The notes: generated from the letters alone by a model not told the origin. A DNA stretch of 10,440 bases from an uncultured Myxococcales bacterium (GCA_964013405.1 CAXGWI010000128.1:1-10440); one strand, 5' to 3'; counted from the stretch's first letter, positions 667 through 10,440 are shown. Numbers and translations are program-made.

Positions 667-1116
667 ATGGAAGTGAATATCCGGCTGGCGGAGTCGGCGG
701 GGGGCGACCCATCGTTCATGCCCGTCTACGCAAGTGGTCAAGCCGCGGGCGCAGACCTTCGGGCGGCCGTTGCTGAGACCGTGACCTTGGCCCCCGGCGA
801 CCGACTGCTGATTCCAACGGGAATCCATATGGCCTTACCACCGGGATTTGAGGGCCAGGTCCGCAGTCGGTCCGGTTTGGCCCTCCACCATGGGCTCTAT
901 CTACCCAACGCACCGGGAACGATCGATTCGGATTACCGAGGTGAAATCGGCGTCATTCTGCAAAATGGTGGTGACCATCCGGTTCAGATTGAACGGGGCG
1001 AGCGGATTGCTCAGTTGATTATCGCACCGGTGTTTCAGGCGGACTTCGTGCCCAGTGATCACTTGGCTGGCACCGGCCGGGGAGCGGGTGGTTTCGGAAG
1101 TACAGGTCGGGCATGA
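667..1116 (+). CDS. dut: Trimeric dUTP diphosphatase (dUTPase), 149 aa
   Basis: All five trimeric dUTPase motifs are present: AGADL, RSRSGLA, GTIDSDYRGEI, ERIAQL and RGAGGFGSTG. Confidence 0.97.
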   Translation: MEVNIRLAESAGGDPSFMPVYASGQAAGADLRAAVAETVTLAPGDRLLIPTGIHMALPPGFEGQVRSRSGLALHHGLYLPNAPGTIDSDYRGEIGVILQNGGDHPVQIERGERIAQLIIAPVFQADFVPSDHLAGTGRGAGGFGSTGRA

Positions 1117-3278
1117 ATCACCCCCTCGACACCCTGTTGCCCACGTCGCGGCGGATCGCAGATCGCTATGAGGTGATCCGCCCCTTGGGTGTCGGCGCAT
1201 TGGGTGTCAGCTACCTGTGTCGGGACCAAGACCTCCAGGAGTTGGTCTGCTTAAAACTCGCCTACCGCCATATGTTGATCGGCCGCCGAGATCGGCGTGC
1301 GTTCGATCAATGGCTGCGGTCCATGCGCACGGCGAATTCGCCACGGTTGGCCGCCTTACAGCGGAGTGGCAGTGATGCCGAGGTCGGGACGTTCTTCGTG
1401 TCGAGCGTTGTCGAAGGTACGCCCTTAGCGAAGGTCGTTGCGGAAGCCGACAGATCCTTCCTGGCTTCAGAGGTCCGTGAACTTCTCGCGGGAATTCAGC
1501 GGGGGCTGAACGATCTTGGTGAGTTGGGCCCCCACGGCGTCCTTCACCTGAACAATATTCTGCTGACCGATGGGGATCCAGTGCTCACCGATGCCGGCAG
1601 CTATTTGAGTGTGCCAAGTCGCCTTTTTGTCGACGCCCACCGGCGTCAGGGGACCCATATCTGGTTGGCACCGGAAGTGATGCGGGAGCGCCAGGATTTA
1701 GACGGCCGGACCGACATCTATTCTGTTTGCGCCATCGCTGCTCATCTTTTGACGGGTCGGCCGCCGGGTTTACAGCAGCGCAAGGAACTCGAGACCTTGC
1801 ATCCCGCACTGCAGGCGGCCTTGCGAGCGGGCCTCACCGATACGGCTGAGGATCGGGTCGCCTCCTTGCACGCATTGGAAGCCGCACTCGATACCGCAAT
1901 CCAGACCGAGCCAGATGCAGAAGAGTTCACCGAGCGGACGGAGCGGTCTGAGCTGAGTATTCGCCAGGAGGACTTGGTCGATATCTACGAGGTGAGCGAG
2001 GAGCCAGCGGCTGGACAAGCCCAACCCACGACCACCGAATCGGAGGTGTCGACAAGGAACGAGGCCCCCTCGACGGTGGAAGAGACGGGTATCGAATCCG
2101 TGACGGACCGATCCCCCATGGATGAAGAGGAAGTGTCTCTGAGCCATGGCGTGTTGCGGTCCATGCCGGAAGGGCCAGCCCAAATGCCCCGAGTTCAGCG
2201 CTCACTCACAGCACTGCAGTGGGTTCTTTTGGCTGTGATTGGCCTGGGCGCGCTGGTTGCCAGCTATCTCATTTTTCAGGGTCTCCTGACGCGGGGGCCA
2301 ACGGATCCTGCCGGGACCCATCGGACCGTTGCAAAGAGTCCCCAGCATGAGGGCGACAACCTGGAGTTGCCTGGCCCTAGTCCGGACCAGAACGTGATCA
2401 GGGCGCCTTCCAGTCTCACCAAACCGGACGCAGGTCCCTCGGCTCGCCCGGCCTTGGCGAGGCCTCTGCGTGATGCTGGTATCGCCCACCGTGTGATTCG
2501 GGTCGATGGGGGGGGCGGCACAAATCTGGAAGTTCTCGCGGAGCAGGCCCTGGAGAAAGTCAGCGGAGAGGAAGGCTTGGAGGGGCTCGAGTCACCACCA
2601 CCGCCAGCCTTGGAGATTCGCCCAGCCCCGGAACCTGCTACTCCCACACCGCCAGCCGCCAAAGCCCAAGAGCCCATCGCGGCGCCCCAGAAAAAAGTGG
2701 GGGGGCGGGCCATTTGCAGCCGAGGGATGGCCCTGATTCCTGGGGGGCCGTTTTCGGCTGGCTCCAATGTGTCGGCCGCTGTGCGAAGTTCCGGCGAGCG
2801 GCAACCGACTCAAGTCGCTGTGGGGGATTTCTGCATGGATCGCTACGAGTACCCCAATTATTTGCGAAGCCCCCCCCGAGGAAATTTCGGCGCGTTCCAG
2901 GCCAAGGCCATGTGCGAGGCGAAGGGGAAGCGTTTGTGTGCGGAAGACGAGTGGGAAAAGGCATGCAAAGGGCCGAGGGGGCATAGCTATGCCTACGGTC
3001 CGGGTTACGTGCCCGGTCGATGCAATACGGTGGATGAAGGCCATGGGAGTGCTGTCGCGCCCTTGAAGTATCCCAAGTGCCGAGCGGGCTATCGAACATT
3101 CGCCATGACCGGTAATCTCGCCGAGTGGGTTCAGGCCAAATCAGGCTTTGCCCTCAAAGGTGGCTCCTATGAAGAAGGACAGTCCTCGGCCCGGTGTGCT
3201 GCGAGAGCGCCGGCTCCAGCCAGTCGTCGACGGGCAGAATACGGGGTGCGTTGTTGTGCGGATCCGAGTTACGAGTAG
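1113..3278 (+). CDS. Membrane-anchored Ser/Thr kinase-like (probable pseudokinase) / FGE-sulfatase (SUMF1-like) domain fusion protein, 721 aa
   Basis: N-terminal Hanks fold: RYEVIRPLGVGALGV, VCLK, NILL, LAPE, DIYS...LTGRPP. Then an acidic linker, one TM helix (LQWVLLAVIGLGALVASYLIF, about 2214-2276) and a Pro-rich spacer. C-terminal FGE-type motifs from about 2712: GMALIPGGPF, FCMDRYEYPN, GKRLCAEDEWEKAC, MTGNLAEW, KGGSY, GVRCC. ATGA overlap with the dut stop. Confidence 0.88.
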   Translation: MNHPLDTLLPTSRRIADRYEVIRPLGVGALGVSYLCRDQDLQELVCLKLAYRHMLIGRRDRRAFDQWLRSMRTANSPRLAALQRSGSDAEVGTFFVSSVVEGTPLAKVVAEADRSFLASEVRELLAGIQRGLNDLGELGPHGVLHLNNILLTDGDPVLTDAGSYLSVPSRLFVDAHRRQGTHIWLAPEVMRERQDLDGRTDIYSVCAIAAHLLTGRPPGLQQRKELETLHPALQAALRAGLTDTAEDRVASLHALEAALDTAIQTEPDAEEFTERTERSELSIRQEDLVDIYEVSEEPAAGQAQPTTTESEVSTRNEAPSTVEETGIESVTDRSPMDEEEVSLSHGVLRSMPEGPAQMPRVQRSLTALQWVLLAVIGLGALVASYLIFQGLLTRGPTDPAGTHRTVAKSPQHEGDNLELPGPSPDQNVIRAPSSLTKPDAGPSARPALARPLRDAGIAHRVIRVDGGGGTNLEVLAEQALEKVSGEEGLEGLESPPPPALEIRPAPEPATPTPPAAKAQEPIAAPQKKVGGRAICSRGMALIPGGPFSAGSNVSAAVRSSGERQPTQVAVGDFCMDRYEYPNYLRSPPRGNFGAFQAKAMCEAKGKRLCAEDEWEKACKGPRGHSYAYGPGYVPGRCNTVDEGHGSAVAPLKYPKCRAGYRTFAMTGNLAEWVQAKSGFALKGGSYEEGQSSARCAARAPAPASRRRAEYGVRCCADPSYE

Positions 3279-3281
3279 GTC

Positions 3282-4058
3282 ATGCTAGAGTTATGCGTTA
3301 GTCTGGTTTTGGTCTTGGATCCGGCGGCTCCGTTCGCCGCAGCAGCGACCGCAGCCGCAAAATCCCGTCCCTGCACGAAGGTGCTGACCATCACCGGGAG
3401 TGCCGAAGCGGACCGGGCCCAGGTCGGTGGCGTGAAAGAGCAAGCTGTCCTCGTCGCTTACGGGCCGGCTGCAGCCGTGGCGGTCGTGACCCGCTGGCCC
3501 GACCGGTCGGTGACTCTTGGCGGACTTGGACCGGCTAATTCGGTCCTTTTTGAAGCCCCACACCGGCGCGTCCTGCCCCTATCCCCAGAGGGGCATGTGG
3601 CAATCGCACTTGCGAATCGACTCTTACCCTCTCGAAAAGTTTGGTGCGTGCCTGTCTCTCCGGACATGGCCCGAGATCGGGTGGAGCGTAGCCGTTCGGC
3701 CCTGCGCCAGGCGGGCATGAGTCTCGTGCCCTACCGGGATGCGCCGCCCGCTGGCTGTGAGGGGCTCGTCGCCTGGTACGAGGGCCCCGCGACGACGGCT
3801 GATGGCTTTCAGACGCTGCTGCAGCAGGCCCATCGCTTGAAGTTGCCCGTGCTCGCTTTTTCGCCAGAACTCCTGGGACAAGGTACGGAGTTGGCTGTGG
3901 GCGTCCAGTTGGGCCTGTACTTGGGCCATCTTCTCGACGGGGGGTCGGTCCAGGAGGATTGGCTCCTGTGGGTTGATCCGGTCGGGGCCGCTCGCAAGGG
4001 GCTGGCTTGGCCAAAAACCTGGCCAAACGTACCTGTGCGGATTCAACCGCCGGAGTAG
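3282..4058 (+). CDS. Exported protein, divergent ABC_sub_bind-like (type I periplasmic binding protein fold), 258 aa
   Basis: Hydrophobic/Ala-rich N-terminus. Segments VLVAYGPAAA, LANRLLPSRKVWCVPVSP and AHRLKLPVLAFSPELLGQGTELAV resemble ABC_sub_bind (PF04392-type) patterns as I recall them (llP..k.igv.y.p; kiPv......v..Gal.a). Starts 3 nt after the upstream stop. Confidence 0.6.
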   Translation: MLELCVSLVLVLDPAAPFAAAATAAAKSRPCTKVLTITGSAEADRAQVGGVKEQAVLVAYGPAAAVAVVTRWPDRSVTLGGLGPANSVLFEAPHRRVLPLSPEGHVAIALANRLLPSRKVWCVPVSPDMARDRVERSRSALRQAGMSLVPYRDAPPAGCEGLVAWYEGPATTADGFQTLLQQAHRLKLPVLAFSPELLGQGTELAVGVQLGLYLGHLLDGGSVQEDWLLWVDPVGAARKGLAWPKTWPNVPVRIQPPE

Positions 4059-4062
4059 ATTG

Positions 4063-4734
4063 ATGGGTCGTATCTGCGTTCTTGGCGCTGCCATCTTCAT
4101 GGCTGCACCGGCTCAAGCCCACGCAGGCTTGGACGTCATGGGTGTGCACCTGGGGCAGAAGAAGCGGACTGCGTTACGGTGGGCCCGTAAGAAAACAGGC
4201 TGTCGGCCCATCAATCGCAAGTTGCGGAGCTTCTACGTCGCCGACGACCACAGCGTGGTGAGTCGTGGGCGGAAAGACCGCTCCGTGGCCGTGATGAACT
4301 GTCGGGATAAGCACTGGCGAGAGGCGAAGATTCGCGAATACCATTTCGTCCGGGGCCGCCTGGCTCGTATCGTGGTTCATCTGGACCCGGGCCTCGGTAG
4401 CAACCGGAGTGCCGGCGAGCCCTGGGTACCAAAGTATCATGAGATTAAGGCCGTCTTGACCGGCGTGCTTGGCGAGCCGGATGAGGTGGTCGAGCACGTG
4501 CCGAAGAGCTTTGCGGGTGACCCGGTCCGGGCCCTCGAGCAGCGGCGTGGAGGCTACTGGAGCCGCTGGGCTGAGCGATCCCGTCAGCGGGTGGATATGG
4601 GTTTGCGGTTAAGTGGAGACCGTAAGCAGCCGGGACGGGTGCTCTTTTACGTCGATATTCGGGGACGCAGTCAGATCAAGTCCCAGAAGAAGCGCCGGCG
4701 CAACCGATTGCGGCCTCGTTATAATCCCTATTGA
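4063..4734 (+). CDS. Highly basic exported hypothetical protein, 223 aa (start reassigned from 3973 to ATG 4063)
   Basis: GGAG at 4052-4055 lies 7 nt before ATG 4063, just after the upstream stop at 4058. This start yields a classic Sec signal peptide, MGRICVLGAAIFMAAPAQAHA|G. Confidence 0.75.
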   Translation: MGRICVLGAAIFMAAPAQAHAGLDVMGVHLGQKKRTALRWARKKTGCRPINRKLRSFYVADDHSVVSRGRKDRSVAVMNCRDKHWREAKIREYHFVRGRLARIVVHLDPGLGSNRSAGEPWVPKYHEIKAVLTGVLGEPDEVVEHVPKSFAGDPVRALEQRRGGYWSRWAERSRQRVDMGLRLSGDRKQPGRVLFYVDIRGRSQIKSQKKRRRNRLRPRYNPY

Positions 4735-5930
4735 GATCGCCTGATGCCTAGGGATTGGTGAAATCCAGGCCAGCTGACATCCACCGCATCGGCACTATCT
4801 AACTGGAGCCCGCCTGGGACGGTGGCTGCCAGGGCGCAGAGCGCCATGTGGATCCGATGATCGCCGTAGCAGGGGATCTCGGCGCTTTGGGCCTGTCCGC
4901 CGACCACTGTGAGCTCGTCTCCGGTCACATGGACCTCAAGGCCACATCTGTGGAGCGCCTCAGCCATCACCGCGAGGCGGTCGCTCTCTTTATGGCGGAT
5001 GCCAGGACTGCATTGGAGTCGCGTGGGACCTGGGCTGAGACTGGCGAGCACGGCCATCGGTGGCAGCAGGTCCGGTTGAGCCCTTAGATCCAAGTACGGA
5101 ACGGCCAATCGCTCACCGGGATGTATCGAGAGTCCATCGTCATGCCAACGCACGCTGGCGCCAAACTGCTCGAGAAACTGAGGGAGGGCCCGATCCGATT
5201 GTCGGGAGTGGCGTTGGAGGTTCGCTAGGCGCAGGGGTTGTCCCATGGCGATGGAGAAAGCCCCAGCCAAACCGGCTGCCGACCAGTCGCCCTCGATGGG
5301 GTAAAGCCCTCCTTGGGCCGTCTGGTTGCCAGGGATCTGGAAGCCATCGCTGGTTTTCTCGATCATCAAACCGAAATGGGCCGCCGCCTGCTGGGTCAAC
5401 TCGACATAACCCTGGGACGGCACCTCGCCGAGCAGCTGAATCCGGCTGTCTCCGGTGGCAAAGGGCAGGGCGAGCAGGAGGCTGGAAAGGAATTGGCTGG
5501 AGAGCTCCGCAGCGACGGAAAACAATCCGGGCTGGAGTGGTCCACGGATGCTGATGGGTAAGTGGTCGTCTCGGCTCTCGATCCAGACACCGGCTGCTTC
5601 GAGACTCCTGAGCAAGGAGGCATTCGTGCGTCGGGAGAGGGAAGCATCACCGACAAAATGGGTCGTTTCACCCAACAGCGCGGCCTGGCCTAAGAGGAAA
5701 CGCAGCGTCGTGCCTGAATTGCCACAGTCGATCGTGATCCCGTCGCCCAGGGCCGCCATGCCACGGTGGGTGGCTTCGGTATCCGCACAGTTCAAAAGCC
5801 CATCGAGCACGGGCGGATCAGGGCAGTGATGGGAAAGGATGAGGGCCCGGTGACTCAGGGACTTGCTACCGGGGACAGCCAGTGAGTCGGGTAGCTTCGA
5901 GGGAGCCTCGATACGCTGCAAAAGGCTCAT
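4728..5930 (-). CDS. aroA: 3-phosphoshikimate 1-carboxyvinyltransferase (EPSP synthase), 400 aa
   Basis: Motifs VPGSKSLSHRAL, DCGNSGTTLRF, SSQFLSSLLL, IEGDWSAA, PDL, RHKESDR, DHRI and SWPGF. ATGA overlap with the upstream transporter gene. Confidence 0.96.
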   Translation of the reverse strand: MSLLQRIEAPSKLPDSLAVPGSKSLSHRALILSHHCPDPPVLDGLLNCADTEATHRGMAALGDGITIDCGNSGTTLRFLLGQAALLGETTHFVGDASLSRRTNASLLRSLEAAGVWIESRDDHLPISIRGPLQPGLFSVAAELSSQFLSSLLLALPFATGDSRIQLLGEVPSQGYVELTQQAAAHFGLMIEKTSDGFQIPGNQTAQGGLYPIEGDWSAAGLAGAFSIAMGQPLRLANLQRHSRQSDRALPQFLEQFGASVRWHDDGLSIHPGERLAVPYLDLRAQPDLLPPMAVLASLSPGPTRLQCSPGIRHKESDRLAVMAEALHRCGLEVHVTGDELTVVGGQAQSAEIPCYGDHRIHMALCALAATVPGGLQLDSADAVDVSWPGFHQSLGIRRSQ

Positions 5931-6985
5931 AGTGACTCGACATGGACCGAGTCCCCTTCCGATGTGGAGTGGATCGCGCCAGGAAGCCTTCCTGCAAGAA
6001 TCTCGGCGGCCGGTCGCGTCGTCTCAAAGCGCGCGAGGATGATGCCCATAATCGCCGTCATCGGTGCGGCCATCAGCATGCCGACGGGACCCCAGATCAT
6101 GCCCCAAAAGATCAAAGCGAGGAGAATGCTCAGGGGGTGAAGGTCGAGGCCATCGCCCATCAGTTTCGGCTCGATGACGTTGCCGATCGTGAACTGGATC
6201 GATCCAGGAATCACGATGGCTGCGGCCACCATCAGTCCGCTCTCTAACTGAATCATCGCAATGGGTAGGGGCAGGAGGGTCGCGATGATGGAGCCAACGC
6301 TTGGAATGAAGTTCAGGAGGAAGGCCATAAAGCCGAAGACCATGGCGAGGTCGAGGCCAAAGAGTGCGAGGGTGCTGCCGACCAGGATGCCGGTGACTGC
6401 AGAGGTGATCACCTTGGTCGCCAGGTAGCGACGAATCTTCCGATCCATCTCCCCCCAAAGCCCCGAACGAACCTCTAGCGGCTGCCTTCCCAGAATCATG
6501 AAGACCGCAAACAACGCCACCAAGACCGAGGTGGTCAGGAAGTTCATGACACCGCCTACGGCGTCTTGCAGCAAAGGCAGGACAGGCAGTTCACGAATGC
6601 GATCGACGAAGTCCTTTTGACCGAGGTCGATGTTCCACCGTGTGAGCAGGCCGAGGACCCGATCGACCAATTGCAGTCCTTTTTCCTTGAAGGTGTCCAC
6701 GTTCTCCATCAGCCCGCCGATGGAGGTGATGAGGAGCAGCGTGAGCAAGGTGAGCAAGGATGCGATGACGAGAAAGGCTGCGAACAAAGCCACCCAACGA
6801 GGTGCCTTCAGGCCCAACTGCAGCCCATCGACTAAAGGGGCCACCAAATGGGTGAGAAACAGGGCGAGCATGAAAGGGACCATGACCGGCCGCGTCCAGT
6901 AGAGGGCGAAGGCCAGGCAGGTGGAAGCAATCACCAACAAGGAGACTGTCGTCAGGTTGCCTTGTTCGATCTGTCGTCCGCCCAT
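5927..6985 (-). CDS. AI-2E family (PerM/TqsA-like) transporter, 352 aa
   Basis: Multiple hydrophobic helices with family motifs LLNFIPSVG and NVIEPKLMGDGLDLHPLSILLALIFWGMIWGPVGMLMAAPMT. Typical length for the family. Confidence 0.93.
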   Translation of the reverse strand: MGGRQIEQGNLTTVSLLVIASTCLAFALYWTRPVMVPFMLALFLTHLVAPLVDGLQLGLKAPRWVALFAAFLVIASLLTLLTLLLITSIGGLMENVDTFKEKGLQLVDRVLGLLTRWNIDLGQKDFVDRIRELPVLPLLQDAVGGVMNFLTTSVLVALFAVFMILGRQPLEVRSGLWGEMDRKIRRYLATKVITSAVTGILVGSTLALFGLDLAMVFGFMAFLLNFIPSVGSIIATLLPLPIAMIQLESGLMVAAAIVIPGSIQFTIGNVIEPKLMGDGLDLHPLSILLALIFWGMIWGPVGMLMAAPMTAIMGIILARFETTRPAAEILAGRLPGAIHSTSEGDSVHVESL

Positions 6986-7009: not shown

Positions 7010-10000
7010 TTAGTCCGAAACCCCCAATGCAACAGGTCCCGTCGCTTCGCCGCTTCCGGGCTCATAGTAGCTGTCGATCGTCGAGGCCGGCGCATTGCCA
7101 TTCATGGGGTACCGGGCTCGCAGGCGGAAGCTCAGCGATTGTGGGGTCTGGGGAGGGAGTCCCATGAGGTAGAAGACGATTTTGCGAGGGTCTGCCTCCC
7201 AGCGTGCAGCCCGTCGCTCGGCCACCAGGGCGTCGAGATCTTCCGGCATGATATCGAAGCCAGGGGGACGGCCGATGCTCACGATCACTTGATCCATGGG
7301 GCCCTCGGCCAGGTTGGTCGCTGTTGCTCGCACCCGAGTCGTCTCCCCAGGGGCCAAGTCCGTTCGGTCGTAAGCCACGTCCAAACTCAGGGTTTGGTTC
7401 GGATTCGGGACGGGGCGCCGATCCCAGGGGCGATAGTGGGTCCCAACCACTTGGTACATCAGGCTGCCCTCACCACGGATCCCAACATTCACCACGTTTT
7501 CACCGGTCACCAAGTGCTCACTCAGATCGGTGGTGAGGTGGACATCACCGAAGTCCTCGTTGCGAAAGTCATAGCGCTGAACGGCCCGGCCATTGTGGGT
7601 GATGACGATCTCGGCATCGATGCTGCGAGTCGCTTCCATCGCCGCGGTCAGCAGGGCTCGAAGGCTGTTCACGGTGGCCTGGGTGGAGTACCAATTCCCG
7701 AAGGCATCTTTCGTGGCCGCGAGGAAGGCCAAACCTTCGGAGACGAGGCCACTACTGGTCCCGGCCTTGATGAAGGCGTAGACGACGAGGCCAGTCATCT
7801 CCACCTCGCCAGGCGTGCCACCTCCTCGCGCACCGGTCCACGAGCCCCCTTCGAAACTCCACTTCTTCTGCCCTTCTCCAGGGGTCTCTGCGGCCGTCGC
7901 CAGCTGGCTCAGCAAGCCCGGGAGGGCTGGGTCCGCAGGATCCCGGGCCAATAAGGCGTTGGCCATGAGGGCGATGGCGTAGCGGTCGCGGGAGGCCTCC
8001 TCAATGTTGGCGACCAGGAAATCTCTTCCCCGCCGCGTCGCGTCTGGAGCGCCACCATCTTTGGCAAGTCCCCATGTGATGAAGGCTGTCGAGCGATAGG
8101 GGCTCGTACCCAAGGCCTCGTTGCCTGAATGTAGGGCATCACCGGCGGCCCAAGAGCCATCACCGGCCTGTTGCTCGACGAGCCAAGTCCGGTGGCGGTC
8201 TGCGACTCGCTCATCGGTCTCGATGAGCCCATCAAGGGCTGCGAACTGCATGAGGGCAATGGCTGTAAGAATGCGGTTGCCAGGATCATTATTGCCCCAC
8301 CAGTTGTAGCCACCTGTTGGGCTTTCGAAGGTCAAAATACGTTGGTAGCCGGTGGCCAAAAGTTCCATGGCCCGGGCCCGGAGATCCGGATCGATCTCTC
8401 CCGTGGCTTCCAGGTATTGCAGGGCAAGGATGTTGGGCCACGCGGTGGATGTGGTCTGCTCGAAGCAGCCCGAGGGAACCCGTAGCATCGATTCCATCCC
8501 CTCCACCGCGTTGGTGGCGTAGCCAGGATAGAGTTTGATCATCAACTCGTTGGCGTCGGGCACTGCATCCACCGGGAAAAGGGTGGTGATGTTGTTGTCT
8601 GGACCCTCTGCCCGCCCACCGACGGTTTGTTCGACAGCATCGCCATTGGGCGCAATGCGGAGGCTTCGCTGGACTGCATCAGCCTCGTCGCCGGCCTGGC
8701 CCTGAATCGTGAGTTGGGCTGTCCCCACCGACGTCGCGGCGATGGTGTAGTAGACGCCCCGGACCTCACCGGCCCCTAAGCGGAGGGTCTGCCGGGCCTG
8801 GGAGCGTAACTCCAGGGGACCATCGATCTCCAGTTGAAGGTCAACCTCCTGGGCCTCTTCTAGGTAGTTGTAGACCACAACCGGTAGGCCGATTTCATCG
8901 CCGACCGTGAGCTGGGCCGGAAGGTCGATATCCACGAAGAAGGGTTGGAAGACCTCAAGTCCCTGGGCACTGGAGCCGAGGGCGCCCTGCGCGCTGTTGG
9001 CTTGGGCCCCGACGCGCCAGGTGGTGATGCTGTCGGCCAGGGGGATCTCCACTTCCGCCCGTCCCTGCTCATCAACGATGACGCTTGGAGCCGTAAACAG
9101 TGTCTCGGGGAACCAACTGCGAACTTGGATTCCCCCAGCCCCGCCAGGCTCGGCAACACCGGTGTCTTCTGGACCATTCGGGTCGGCACCTCCGCCGCCA
9201 CCGCCACCACCGGCTTGGGGAGGGCCGGCCCCTTCCTCATCTTCAAGAAAGCCTCTGGCGAGGGGGCGAATCCAACCGGAGACATCATCGAGGGTTTCAA
9301 AAACTTCGTCGGGACCGGCCGTCGTTAGTCGGATGTGCCAACCGTTGCCGGTATGGCGATAGGGTTGCCCGAAGGGGTCGCTTAATTGAGCGACGAGTCG
9401 GAGAGCCTCAGCCTCCAGTTGGTCCCAATCAAGCTCGCCGGAATTAAGTCGTTCCTGGAGATCGCGACCGATGCGCTCACCCTCCTTCTGGATGCGCAAT
9501 TGGAGCGCAACCCGGACTTCGTGAAGCGCCAGTCGTTCTGAGTCCAGTTGAACCAAAGCGAGGGGCCCTAAGGCGGCGGGAAAGGCCAGACGAGCGAGGG
9601 CCTCTCGCCGACCATCATCGGACTCGGAGAGGACCTCGCCAGGCCGCACCGGGCCGGTCGCTGCATCGGCATCTCCCGAAAGGTCGAAATGGGTCTCAAG
9701 GCGGCCGGGTGCGGCATCACCGAGGGCGAAGACAGCTTCGTCGACGGCCGTCAGACCGACGTTCGCCTGCACCGGCTGTCCTAGGTGGTCAGCCACTTGA
9801 ATCCGCAGGTTCGCCCGCTCACCGGGACGGTATTGGGCTTGGTCAAAGCGCAGGCCCACGTCCAGGGCGGCTAAGGCTTGCACATAAACCATGGCTTGCC
9901 CTGTCACGAGGGCCTCATCGCCCCGTCGAGCCATGGCGCTCAAGGTCAAGCCGCCATGAAAGCGCTCGTCGAGGGGAACCACCAGTTGGGCCTGCCCATC

Positions 10001-10440
10001 TTCGAGCCGCCCCTGGACGGTGGCGAGGGTGCTGCCAGCTTTGATCACGTCGAGGAAGACATCGCCCGATGCCTCCGGGACGATGGCCGTGACCTCGAGG
10101 GCCCCAGGCGCTCGCAGGACGTGGCGGTTGGGCCGGAGGAGAAAACGATCCTGGCTCGCCAGAGGGAGGGTGACATTTTGTTCGAAGGCCGGCGCACCGT
10201 CGGGCTCGACGGTCATCGTGATGCCCTGGCCTGCCGCCTCCTGGGGCAGATCGAAATGGCCCGAGCCCGTGGCATCGGTATTGATCCGCAGCCCAGAAAG
10301 GCCCGGCCCAGCGAGTGTGATCGGCAGGGCCAGCGGTGCGCCGCCCGGGTCACGGGCAAGCACTTGGATCCGATTGTTGGTGCCGGGAATGACGGCGCCA
10401 TTCTCCGGGACGAGGTGAACGAGGGCGGCGCCAGCCGCAA
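7010..10440 (-). CDS. Alpha-2-macroglobulin / thioester-containing protein (partial, 5' end outside window; more than 1140 aa)
   Basis: The frame is open beyond GTG 10363 to the window edge (AAGAALVHLVPENGAVIPGTNNRIQV...). Motifs: YRPGE, AVDEAVFAL, VRSWFPETL, DSITTW, VFQPFFVDIDLP, thioester GCFEQ (CFEQ at 8456-8467), GYQRIL, VEMTG, STQATV..L.AL, and a C-terminal receptor-binding/MG8 domain (PPGF...SYYEP). Confidence 0.95.
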   Translation of the reverse strand, partial: AAGAALVHLVPENGAVIPGTNNRIQVLARDPGGAPLALPITLAGPGLSGLRINTDATGSGHFDLPQEAAGQGITMTVEPDGAPAFEQNVTLPLASQDRFLLRPNRHVLRAPGALEVTAIVPEASGDVFLDVIKAGSTLATVQGRLEDGQAQLVVPLDERFHGGLTLSAMARRGDEALVTGQAMVYVQALAALDVGLRFDQAQYRPGERANLRIQVADHLGQPVQANVGLTAVDEAVFALGDAAPGRLETHFDLSGDADAATGPVRPGEVLSESDDGRREALARLAFPAALGPLALVQLDSERLALHEVRVALQLRIQKEGERIGRDLQERLNSGELDWDQLEAEALRLVAQLSDPFGQPYRHTGNGWHIRLTTAGPDEVFETLDDVSGWIRPLARGFLEDEEGAGPPQAGGGGGGGGADPNGPEDTGVAEPGGAGGIQVRSWFPETLFTAPSVIVDEQGRAEVEIPLADSITTWRVGAQANSAQGALGSSAQGLEVFQPFFVDIDLPAQLTVGDEIGLPVVVYNYLEEAQEVDLQLEIDGPLELRSQARQTLRLGAGEVRGVYYTIAATSVGTAQLTIQGQAGDEADAVQRSLRIAPNGDAVEQTVGGRAEGPDNNITTLFPVDAVPDANELMIKLYPGYATNAVEGMESMLRVPSGCFEQTTSTAWPNILALQYLEATGEIDPDLRARAMELLATGYQRILTFESPTGGYNWWGNNDPGNRILTAIALMQFAALDGLIETDERVADRHRTWLVEQQAGDGSWAAGDALHSGNEALGTSPYRSTAFITWGLAKDGGAPDATRRGRDFLVANIEEASRDRYAIALMANALLARDPADPALPGLLSQLATAAETPGEGQKKWSFEGGSWTGARGGGTPGEVEMTGLVVYAFIKAGTSSGLVSEGLAFLAATKDAFGNWYSTQATVNSLRALLTAAMEATRSIDAEIVITHNGRAVQRYDFRNEDFGDVHLTTDLSEHLVTGENVVNVGIRGEGSLMYQVVGTHYRPWDRRPVPNPNQTLSLDVAYDRTDLAPGETTRVRATATNLAEGPMDQVIVSIGRPPGFDIMPEDLDALVAERRAARWEADPRKIVFYLMGLPPQTPQSLSFRLRARYPMNGNAPASTIDSYYEPGSGEATGPVALGVSD

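Follow-up and report, generated by a model that had tools for sequence, protein, structure and literature searches.

An α2-macroglobulin-family gene of a third, animal-side prokaryotic class in an uncultured Myxococcales bacterium

Results

A thioester-protein gene at the end of a Myxococcales contig

The DNA analysed here (the window) is 10,440 nucleotides (nt) long and makes up the whole of contig C128 (CAXGWI010000128.1:1-10440) in a 3.9-Mb, 94% complete genome of an uncultured marine Myxococcales bacterium (GCA_964013405.1). On its minus strand, at 7010..10438, lies the 3′ part of a gene of the α2-macroglobulin (A2M) and thioester-protein (TEP) superfamily; the stop codon is at 7010, the frame is still open at the end of the window and contig, and the 1,142-residue product (P0001) is referred to below as the window protein. 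A preliminary description, made from the sequence alone, had placed a bacterial protein with animal-like TEP motifs at 7010-9124. The motif region is real, but this span covers only the last 705 residues of a frame that runs on to the window end. The motifs reported there all fall in one open minus-strand frame: RSWFPET (9101-9121), DSITTW (9017-9034), VFQPFFVDIDLP (8918-8953), VYNYL (8861-8875), PSGCFEQ (8456-8476), GYQR (8339-8350), GGYNWWG (8294-8314), EVEMTG (7790-7807), STQAT (7673-7687) and SYYEP (7058-7072), together with an LTA motif in the translation.

This set of motifs is not a product of chance, because four Pfam models, TED_complement (E 2e-33), A2M (4e-20), A2M_BRD (9e-9) and A2M_recep (3e-8), all match P0001 over their cut-offs. 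Macroglobulin (MG) beta-sandwich domains and a linker occupy residues 1-296 (9551..10438; A2M_BRD at 131-239 and an AlphaFold2 (AF2) model), followed by an inserted domain at residues 297-390 (9269..9550; AF2 predicted local distance difference (pLDDT) 90.5) and a predicted bait region, residues 391-436 (9131..9268), disordered and ending at RSWFPET. The second half of MG6, MG7 and the first half of the CUB domain come next (8519..9127; Pfam A2M at 452-536), with RSWFPET, DSITTW, FQPFF and YNYL. The thioester domain (TED), residues 644-935 (7634..8509), aligns to positions 15-309 of the 312 in TED_complement and holds the thioester motif C658-F-E-Q661 (8456..8467; Cys codon TGC) and a predicted catalytic histidine, His770 (8129..8131). 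The second half of CUB (residues 940-1004; 7427..7621) leads into an MG8 or receptor-binding-type domain ending in SYYEP (7013..7405), with A2M_recep over cut-off and no bMG10 match. MG, CUB, TED and MG8 are thus present in the family order along with the CxEQ motif, as expected of the superfamily.

The frame carries on into contig C200 through a unique, in-frame 29-nt overlap. C200 holds the 5′ 472 codons, which encode a signal peptide and a lipobox-like Cys20 (both judged by eye and regular expression) and N-terminal MG domains. The C200 and C128 pieces match residues 1-471 (66%) and 463-1597 (75%) of an uninterrupted relative, P0002, and the gene order thiG, dsbD, A2M gene, AI-2E transporter, aroA is identical at locus L005. 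Given the overlap, this colinearity and the shared synteny, we read the sequence as a bacterial gene, intact at about 1,605 codons, and no eukaryotic contaminant. Against a contaminant contig speaks an intronless gene, sited among bacterial housekeeping genes, in synteny with a Myxococcales record at 81% identity; the nearest relatives are Myxococcota records, the best sharing 81% identity across the C-terminal 706 residues. We looked for a promoter-like site upstream of the gene and found none. Metatranscriptome matches are short contig pieces in two marine sets (3 and 2 records), a weak hint rather than proof of transcription.

Sequence affinity to animal-type proteins

The preliminary description had judged the protein closer to animal A2Ms than to those of the E. 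coli type, and direct comparison bears this out. In phmmer searches of the PDB, the window protein scores 148.8 bits with CD109, 139.8 with A2ML1, 125 with A2M, 79 with C3, 65 with TEP1, 57 with Salmonella A2M and 52.5 with ECAM. Five animal-type motifs (R..F.ET, F..FF, [YF]NY[LM], [GS]YQ[RKT] and [ST]TQ[AD]T) are each found in 13-22 of 22 sequences (rows) from the window protein's own clade and in 12-21 of 22 eukaryote rows, as against 0/15 YfhM/YfaS-type rows and 0-1 of 9 rows from bacteria labelled 'D'. Neither an anaphylatoxin nor a C345C domain, characteristic tests for complement C3/C4/C5, matches by Pfam, and the window protein stops at MG8.

A second A2M gene on contig C84 of the same genome, with bMG5/bMG10 domains and followed by pbpC (L002:11548-15588 and 9213-11519; G000), gives the mirror image of the window protein: its C-terminal 700 residues score 148 bits with ECAM and 16 with CD109. 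A classical type I A2M and an animal-side A2M coexist in one genome as two unrelated classes. NCBIfam has no model for P0001, P0002 or the C84 protein, and an ESM Atlas search did not separate animal-type from bMG10-type clusters.

A wide prokaryotic family

The window protein is matched at E<=1e-10 by 2,541 of 7,996 scored candidates. The best 120 of these are mostly about 1,600 residues long, and those with names are from Myxococcota, Armatimonadota, Planctomycetota and other bacteria; further loci of the same type come from Acidobacteriota, Chloroflexota and others, so that the family spans many phyla besides Myxococcota. We call this prokaryotic clade, with its GCFEQ motif, clade A. The thioester C, E and Q are invariant in all 251 aligned clade-A proteins, 169 of 205 have hydrophobic N-termini, and some genomes carry several copies. 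An offshoot, A′ (L199-L211), occurs in Myxococcota, including a complete genome; its proteins are shorter (1,380-1,670 residues), keep CFEQ and have lost most animal-type motifs and often the His.

Eukaryote sequences were gathered by scanning metagenomes for a CD109-type motif, which gave both intron-broken or transcript contigs and a set of intronless genes, clade B. Named animal CD109, iTEP and A2M proteins, with no C3 among them, were added, and classical bacterial outgroups were collected separately. Clade B (intronless loci within L031-L106, P0255-P0374 and L266-L274) consists of prokaryotic TEPs with a GCGEQNM motif, the His loop and an animal-like domain count, from Planctomycetota, Chloroflexota and Methanosarcinales/ANME-2; some have been auto-named 'CD109 antigen' by JGI. 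One subgroup, B2, is present in 9 of 201 genomes of the Chloroflexota-titled phylum, at 57-62% identity. Two GC-rich, intronless CD109-like open reading frames (ORFs), L104 and L078, may be green-algal (Mamiellales-type) copies; L104 is sister to the remaining eukaryote rows.

Phylogenetic placement

Unrooted trees were built on the region from MG6b to MG8. The largest is a quick LG+G4 tree of 98 rows and 686 columns, from which sets of 60 and 38 rows were picked by hand; the 60-row results, under LG+C20 with posterior mean site frequencies (PMSF), also come from a quick tree, and the 38-row tree from a careful search. M_P0392 was excluded as the same transcript as L087, a long-branched piece of the K-12 yfaS pseudogene is only in the 98-row trees, and eukaryote rows L104 and L073 are metatranscriptome contigs. 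With 98 rows, A plus A′, clade B and the eukaryotes lie on one side of a branch of length 0.63 (Shimodaira-Hasegawa-like approximate likelihood ratio test, SH-aLRT, 100), and the eukaryotes form one clade (22/22) with no prokaryote row inside. The 60-row tree supports clade A (96), B with eukaryotes (99), B2 with eukaryotes (98) and the classical split (SH-aLRT 100). In the 38-row tree, support is 100/99 for A+B+eukaryotes, 100/100 for B+eukaryotes and for eukaryotes, 99/94 for B2+eukaryotes and 85/82 for A.

Nesting within the canonical YfhM/ECAM clade had been set beforehand as the outcome that would undo the animal-like reading, and the window protein falls outside that clade: the approximately unbiased (AU) test rejects clade A with YfhM/ECAM (p 9.6e-55), in keeping with the 100/99 split. 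Placing the window protein alone with classical rows is also rejected (p 7e-8), a less informative test since it pulls the protein from its own clade. In trees of three separate domains, A+B+eukaryotes is recovered with support of 93, 63 and 82 and B+eukaryotes with 99, 99 and 100; two of the three exclude the motif by which clade B was found, and the B2+eukaryotes grouping is lost in the TED tree. The window protein also lies outside the eukaryote clade (support 100) that contains animal CD109, iTEP and A2M. The earlier suggestion of a bacterial clade close to animal TEPs therefore holds as to the side of the long branch, but not as to nearest kin: every tree puts clade B nearest to the eukaryotic TEPs among the prokaryotic groups, and a grouping of clade A with eukaryotes to the exclusion of B is rejected (p 2.6e-5). 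We infer from the trees that there is a prokaryotic radiation on the animal side, with clade A branching deeply within it.

Predicted structure, bait and histidine

The AF2 model of P0001 has a pLDDT of 85. A structural comparison, another check put forward with the preliminary description, also favours animal proteins: in Foldseek, the best matches are the native states of CD109, A2ML1 and A2M (template-modelling (TM) scores 0.52-0.53; activated states 0.32-0.37), and ECAM first appears at rank 22. The top VIA match is TEP1 (Z 37.5, root-mean-square deviation (rmsd) 5.4 Å over 698 residues), with no bacterial A2M among the 50 matches listed. The TED alone superposes on C4d (Z 32.2, rmsd 2.5 Å over 281) and C3d (Z 30.8, rmsd 2.4 Å over 274).

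The bait region is rich in Gly, Pro and acidic residues, with Arg, Phe, Leu and Glu at its start; pLDDT is below 50 at 395-406 and 408-434, the position is the same as that of the CD109 bait, and the sequence has diverged from that of the 75%-identical relative P0002. His770 aligns with the His of the CD109 'VIH' loop, which we take to be the catalytic His, in both pairwise and multiple alignments. This loop aligns across A, B and the eukaryotes, with no alignment in YfhM or 'D' rows. MG2 starts at residue 255 in the window protein, whereas its median start is residue 144 for clade B and 130 for animals, a difference that would imply about one extra N-terminal domain; ECAM is described as having two (PMC9156758).

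The inserted domain is predicted to form a long helix, a short helix and a beta-hairpin, with the motif D-P-F-G..Y..G-P-D..T-x-D-D. Its Foldseek ranks 1-9 are all major pseudopilins, none of them significant (E 0.12-1.7), and a wide VIA search gave no Z>=8 (EpsG 4.8, PulG 4.7). Pfam T2SSG is over cut-off in one relative, P0070, and a G.D..[TNS].DD motif is found in 92 of 124 parsable clade-A proteins, 1 of 8 in clade B and 0 of 20 in animals. The insert is likely related to the head of the GspG/PulG pseudopilins. The slot before the bait takes other modules elsewhere: a YscJ/FliF-like domain in P0130 (1029-1317) and carboxypeptidase-regulatory-like domains in P0108, P0163, P0184 and P0235.

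UGA codons at the thioester position

In some members of clade A, the codon at the exact position of the thioester Cys is an in-frame UGA. L236-L265 hold 27 of the 30 sites, the others being L229, L235 and L230, and L228 is a broken copy; the 30 genes have open frames of at least 304 residues before and at least 456 after the UGA. Among 401 genomes of the window's phylum, pattern scans matched 7, of which 3 are true and one of these is frameshifted; among 251 genomes of the phylum to which G151 (titled Planctomycetota) belongs, 18 were matched and 15 are true. The UGA rows require at least five changes on the clade-A tree. The 63 nt downstream of the UGA fold into a stable hairpin at -20.9 kcal/mol, compared with -13.1 in 58 Cys genes, rows that are not independent; strong E-values for selA come from 14 of the 15 UGA-bearing genomes, against a background of 184/251 over cut-off, and is over cut-off in G076 and G086. 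RNAalifold returned 0 consensus pairs from the UGA-downstream sequences, and a strict model of the bacterial selenocysteine insertion sequence (bSECIS) did not discriminate, passing 11 of 30 UGA and 14 of 58 Cys genes. Taken together, these genes probably encode selenocysteine (selenoester) forms. The window's own genome has no selA match, and its thioester codon is TGC. Macroglobulins do not appear among the 119 prokaryotic selenoprotein families in the available text of a 2026 review (PMC13188914); if the reading is right, the UGA-bearing relatives would add a selenoester warhead outside those families. In two Myxococcota genomes, UGA-type TEP genes have a gene for a trypsin-family protease nearby (L225:12052-13278 and L226:1-432).

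Gene neighbourhoods

Across 38 clade-A loci no neighbouring gene is kept, beyond those shared with the same-genus relative. A pbpC homolog is found at 0 of 41 clade-A loci and 12 of 27 classical loci, in a set where some loci have short flanks. A family of proteins of about 370 residues without a Pfam match is encoded directly downstream of three clade-A genes (L213:10674-11765, L218:10915-12024 and L227:10811-11962). Elsewhere in clade A, a gene for an extracytoplasmic function (ECF) sigma factor lies directly upstream at L021, L027 and L028, and zf-HC2 (anti-sigma-like) N-termini are found in P0126 and P0130, with similar ones seen by eye in P0120 and P0139; it is possible that in such relatives this arrangement is a protease-sensing signal device. 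The remainder of the window encodes a Ser/Thr-kinase-like membrane protein with a C-terminal FGE-sulfatase domain (1113-3278, +), a dUTPase (667-1116, +), and aroA and an AI-2E transporter (4728-6985, −); the ORFs at 3282-4058 and 4063-4734 have no Pfam match.

Discussion

Relation to known A2M-family proteins

The window protein is an ordinary Cys member of a third, animal-side class of prokaryotic A2M-family proteins. Its best sequence and Foldseek matches are the monomeric animal inhibitors CD109 and A2ML1 (PDB 8s3o, 7q1y), with which it shares the order MG-bait-MG7-CUB-TED-CUB-MG8, CxEQ, the His loop and an N-terminal export signal. It differs from them in having GCFEQ rather than GCGEQ, about 120 more residues before MG2, a pseudopilin-like insert before the bait and a likely N-terminal lipid anchor where theirs is a C-terminal glycosylphosphatidylinositol (GPI) anchor, and identity is about 21%. 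Anopheles TEP1 and complement C3/C4/C5 (PDB 2pn5, 2a73, 1hzf) offer the best VIA match and a TED superposing on C3d/C4d at 2.4-2.5 Å; the window protein lacks their anaphylatoxin and C345C domains by Pfam, and sequence scores are lower (65-79 bits).

With the type I proteins ECAM/YfhM and SaA2M (PDB 5a42, 4u48), the window protein has in common a predicted lipoprotein-type N-terminus, CxEQ, a bait and the overall fold (Foldseek E 4e-43). Type I is defined as encoded with pbpC (PMC5764988). The window protein has no pbpC neighbour and no bMG10; it has a full TED_complement match and the His loop, and lies a long branch away. Type II proteins, MagD of P. aeruginosa and YfaS of E. coli, share the A2M-family fold; they are described as lacking CxEQ and belonging to a six-gene operon (PMC5764988), whereas the window gene has CxEQ and stands alone with no conserved operon. 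Clade B, including P0259 of Anaerobaca lacustris and P0351 and P0364 of ANME-2/Methanosarcinales, is the sister group in our trees, with the His loop and 28% identity to the window protein; it is set apart by GCGEQNM, an MG2 start at a median of residue 144, the lack of a pseudopilin-like insert in those few rows that could be parsed, and greater nearness to animals (31%).

A predicted covalent protease trap

We favour the reading, with a probability of roughly 0.6, that the gene is an intact member of this third class and that its product is likely a membrane-anchored covalent protease trap. By analogy with A2ML1 and CD109 (PMC9156758, PMC12927315), the protein would be exported, lipid-anchored and active as a stand-alone monomer. 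A protease would cut the bait at 391-436, upon which the TED would leave its seat on MG8 and His770 would attack the Cys658-Gln661 thioester; the resulting acyl-imidazole would couple the window protein to the protease at an amine or hydroxyl group, leaving the protease held and shielded. The pseudopilin-like insert would likely stabilize or tether the bait.

Several observations weigh against this reading or its animal-side placement. The AF2 model has a predicted TM score (pTM) of only 0.54, and the Foldseek score of 0.46 with native ECAM and Salmonella A2M is near the 0.53 of the animal proteins. Raw identity of the window protein is 21.4% to eukaryotes, 21.2% to 'D' bacteria and 18.5% to YfhM types, and judged from these alignments is a weak discriminator between the groups. 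Support for A+B+eukaryotes from the TED alone is 63, and in the CUB-MG8 tree the path from the window protein to ECAM (3.73) is shorter than that to eukaryotes (3.99). The trees were made without C3/C4/C5, placozoan or Asgard rows and are unrooted; the AU test leaves the monophyly of clade B standing (p 0.115), so that animals need not nest within B. Only about half of the clade-A proteins keep the His (128/251 at the column, 136/251 within the loop). Insect TEP1, the best VIA match, is described as not shown to inhibit proteases (PMC9156758).

The most serious functional rival is that the protein, once triggered, attaches covalently to surface hydroxyls or amines of prey, particles or its own envelope as a tag or anchor, in the manner of C3 or TEP1. 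His770 should permit reaction with hydroxyls (PMC9156758), TEP1 leads the VIA matches, the pseudopilin-like insert sits directly before the bait, and some relatives have multiple copies per genome. However, A2ML1 has the same His-type chemistry, and both it and CD109 inhibit proteases (PMC9156758, PMC12927315); the long disordered bait, the lack of conserved partner genes in 38 loci and a family not confined to Myxococcota also count against this rival, and we consider surface tagging unlikely. A link to predation, raised in the preliminary description, is without support in this analysis. It is more improbable still that the protein acts mainly as a protease sensor, in which cleavage or conformational change signals across the membrane or releases the protein. 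The upstream ECF sigma factors and zf-HC2 N-termini described above would fit such a role, as would the release of CD109 from cells upon cleavage (PMC12927315), but the sigma link is found at just 3 of 38 loci, and the window protein has a plain lipoprotein-type N-terminus and thiG, dsbD, an AI-2E transporter and aroA as neighbours. Finally, the animal affinity itself might be an artefact of eukaryotic contamination, or of convergence or long-branch effects in an ordinary bacterial A2M. Divergences are deep, compositional heterogeneity was flagged and the mixture-model support comes from a quick tree; against this stand the intronless gene in its syntenic bacterial setting, bacterial names on the best 120 matches where they are named, shared indels and motifs, and splits that hold under two models and in three domains. 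This explanation is largely refuted, and we regard it as the least probable of all.

Origin of the animal proteins

Published accounts divide bacterial A2Ms into two types, which differ in structure from those of animals and may have been acquired from them (PMC5764988, PMC9156758, PMC13069473), and in one of these reviews the animal family arises after sponges had split off. In the available text of PMC9156758, A2M-family members are reported from some Mamiellales algae and from no sponges or fungi; that of PMC12939704 names only Gram-negative bacteria, and the word 'macroglobulin' is absent from PMC8195603. Neither clade A nor clade B is described in the papers listed by our literature search; Budd 2004, Doan 2008 and the supplementary trees of PMC9156758 were outside its scope.

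That the family is so widespread among microbes suggests a microbial source for the animal proteins and not an animal source for the microbial ones, and from the trees we infer that animal CD109, A2M and TEP would have arisen from clade B, the sister of clade A. A larger proposal, which we hold at even odds, is that a large undescribed prokaryotic radiation gave rise to the animal thioester arsenal (CD109, A2M, TEP and, by extension, complement), with clade A as its deep branch, a Chloroflexota-type B subgroup as the sister of eukaryotic TEPs and a transfer near the base of the animals; the His-catalysed thioester, pseudopilin-derived insert and selenoester warheads of clade A would then be chemistry diversified beyond that of animals. 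The opposite direction, in which bacteria took up an early animal gene and clades A and B descend from it (the hypothesis of Budd et al., restated in PMC13069473 and PMC9156758), seems to us rather improbable. An unrooted tree permits a root on the eukaryote branch, clade-B monophyly survives the AU test, and the prokaryotic distribution is patchy, as in the 9 of 201 Chloroflexota-titled genomes with B2. But all 22 eukaryote rows form a single clade with no prokaryote inside, the transfer would have to be older than all bacterial diversity, the much longer YfhM/YfaS branches included, and the family is reported to be absent from sponges and fungi (PMC9156758).

The window protein, an ordinary Cys member, is not the closest relative of the animal proteins. 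If the microbe-to-animal direction is correct, the textbook story of animal-to-bacteria transfer would be reversed, and such a transfer could explain the reported absence from sponges and fungi. With a third prokaryotic class that has a TED, His loop and MG8 of the animal type, the origin of the animal proteins can be tested directly by phylogeny and simple biochemistry, and proteins of this class would serve as bacterial models of CD109 and A2ML1 chemistry.

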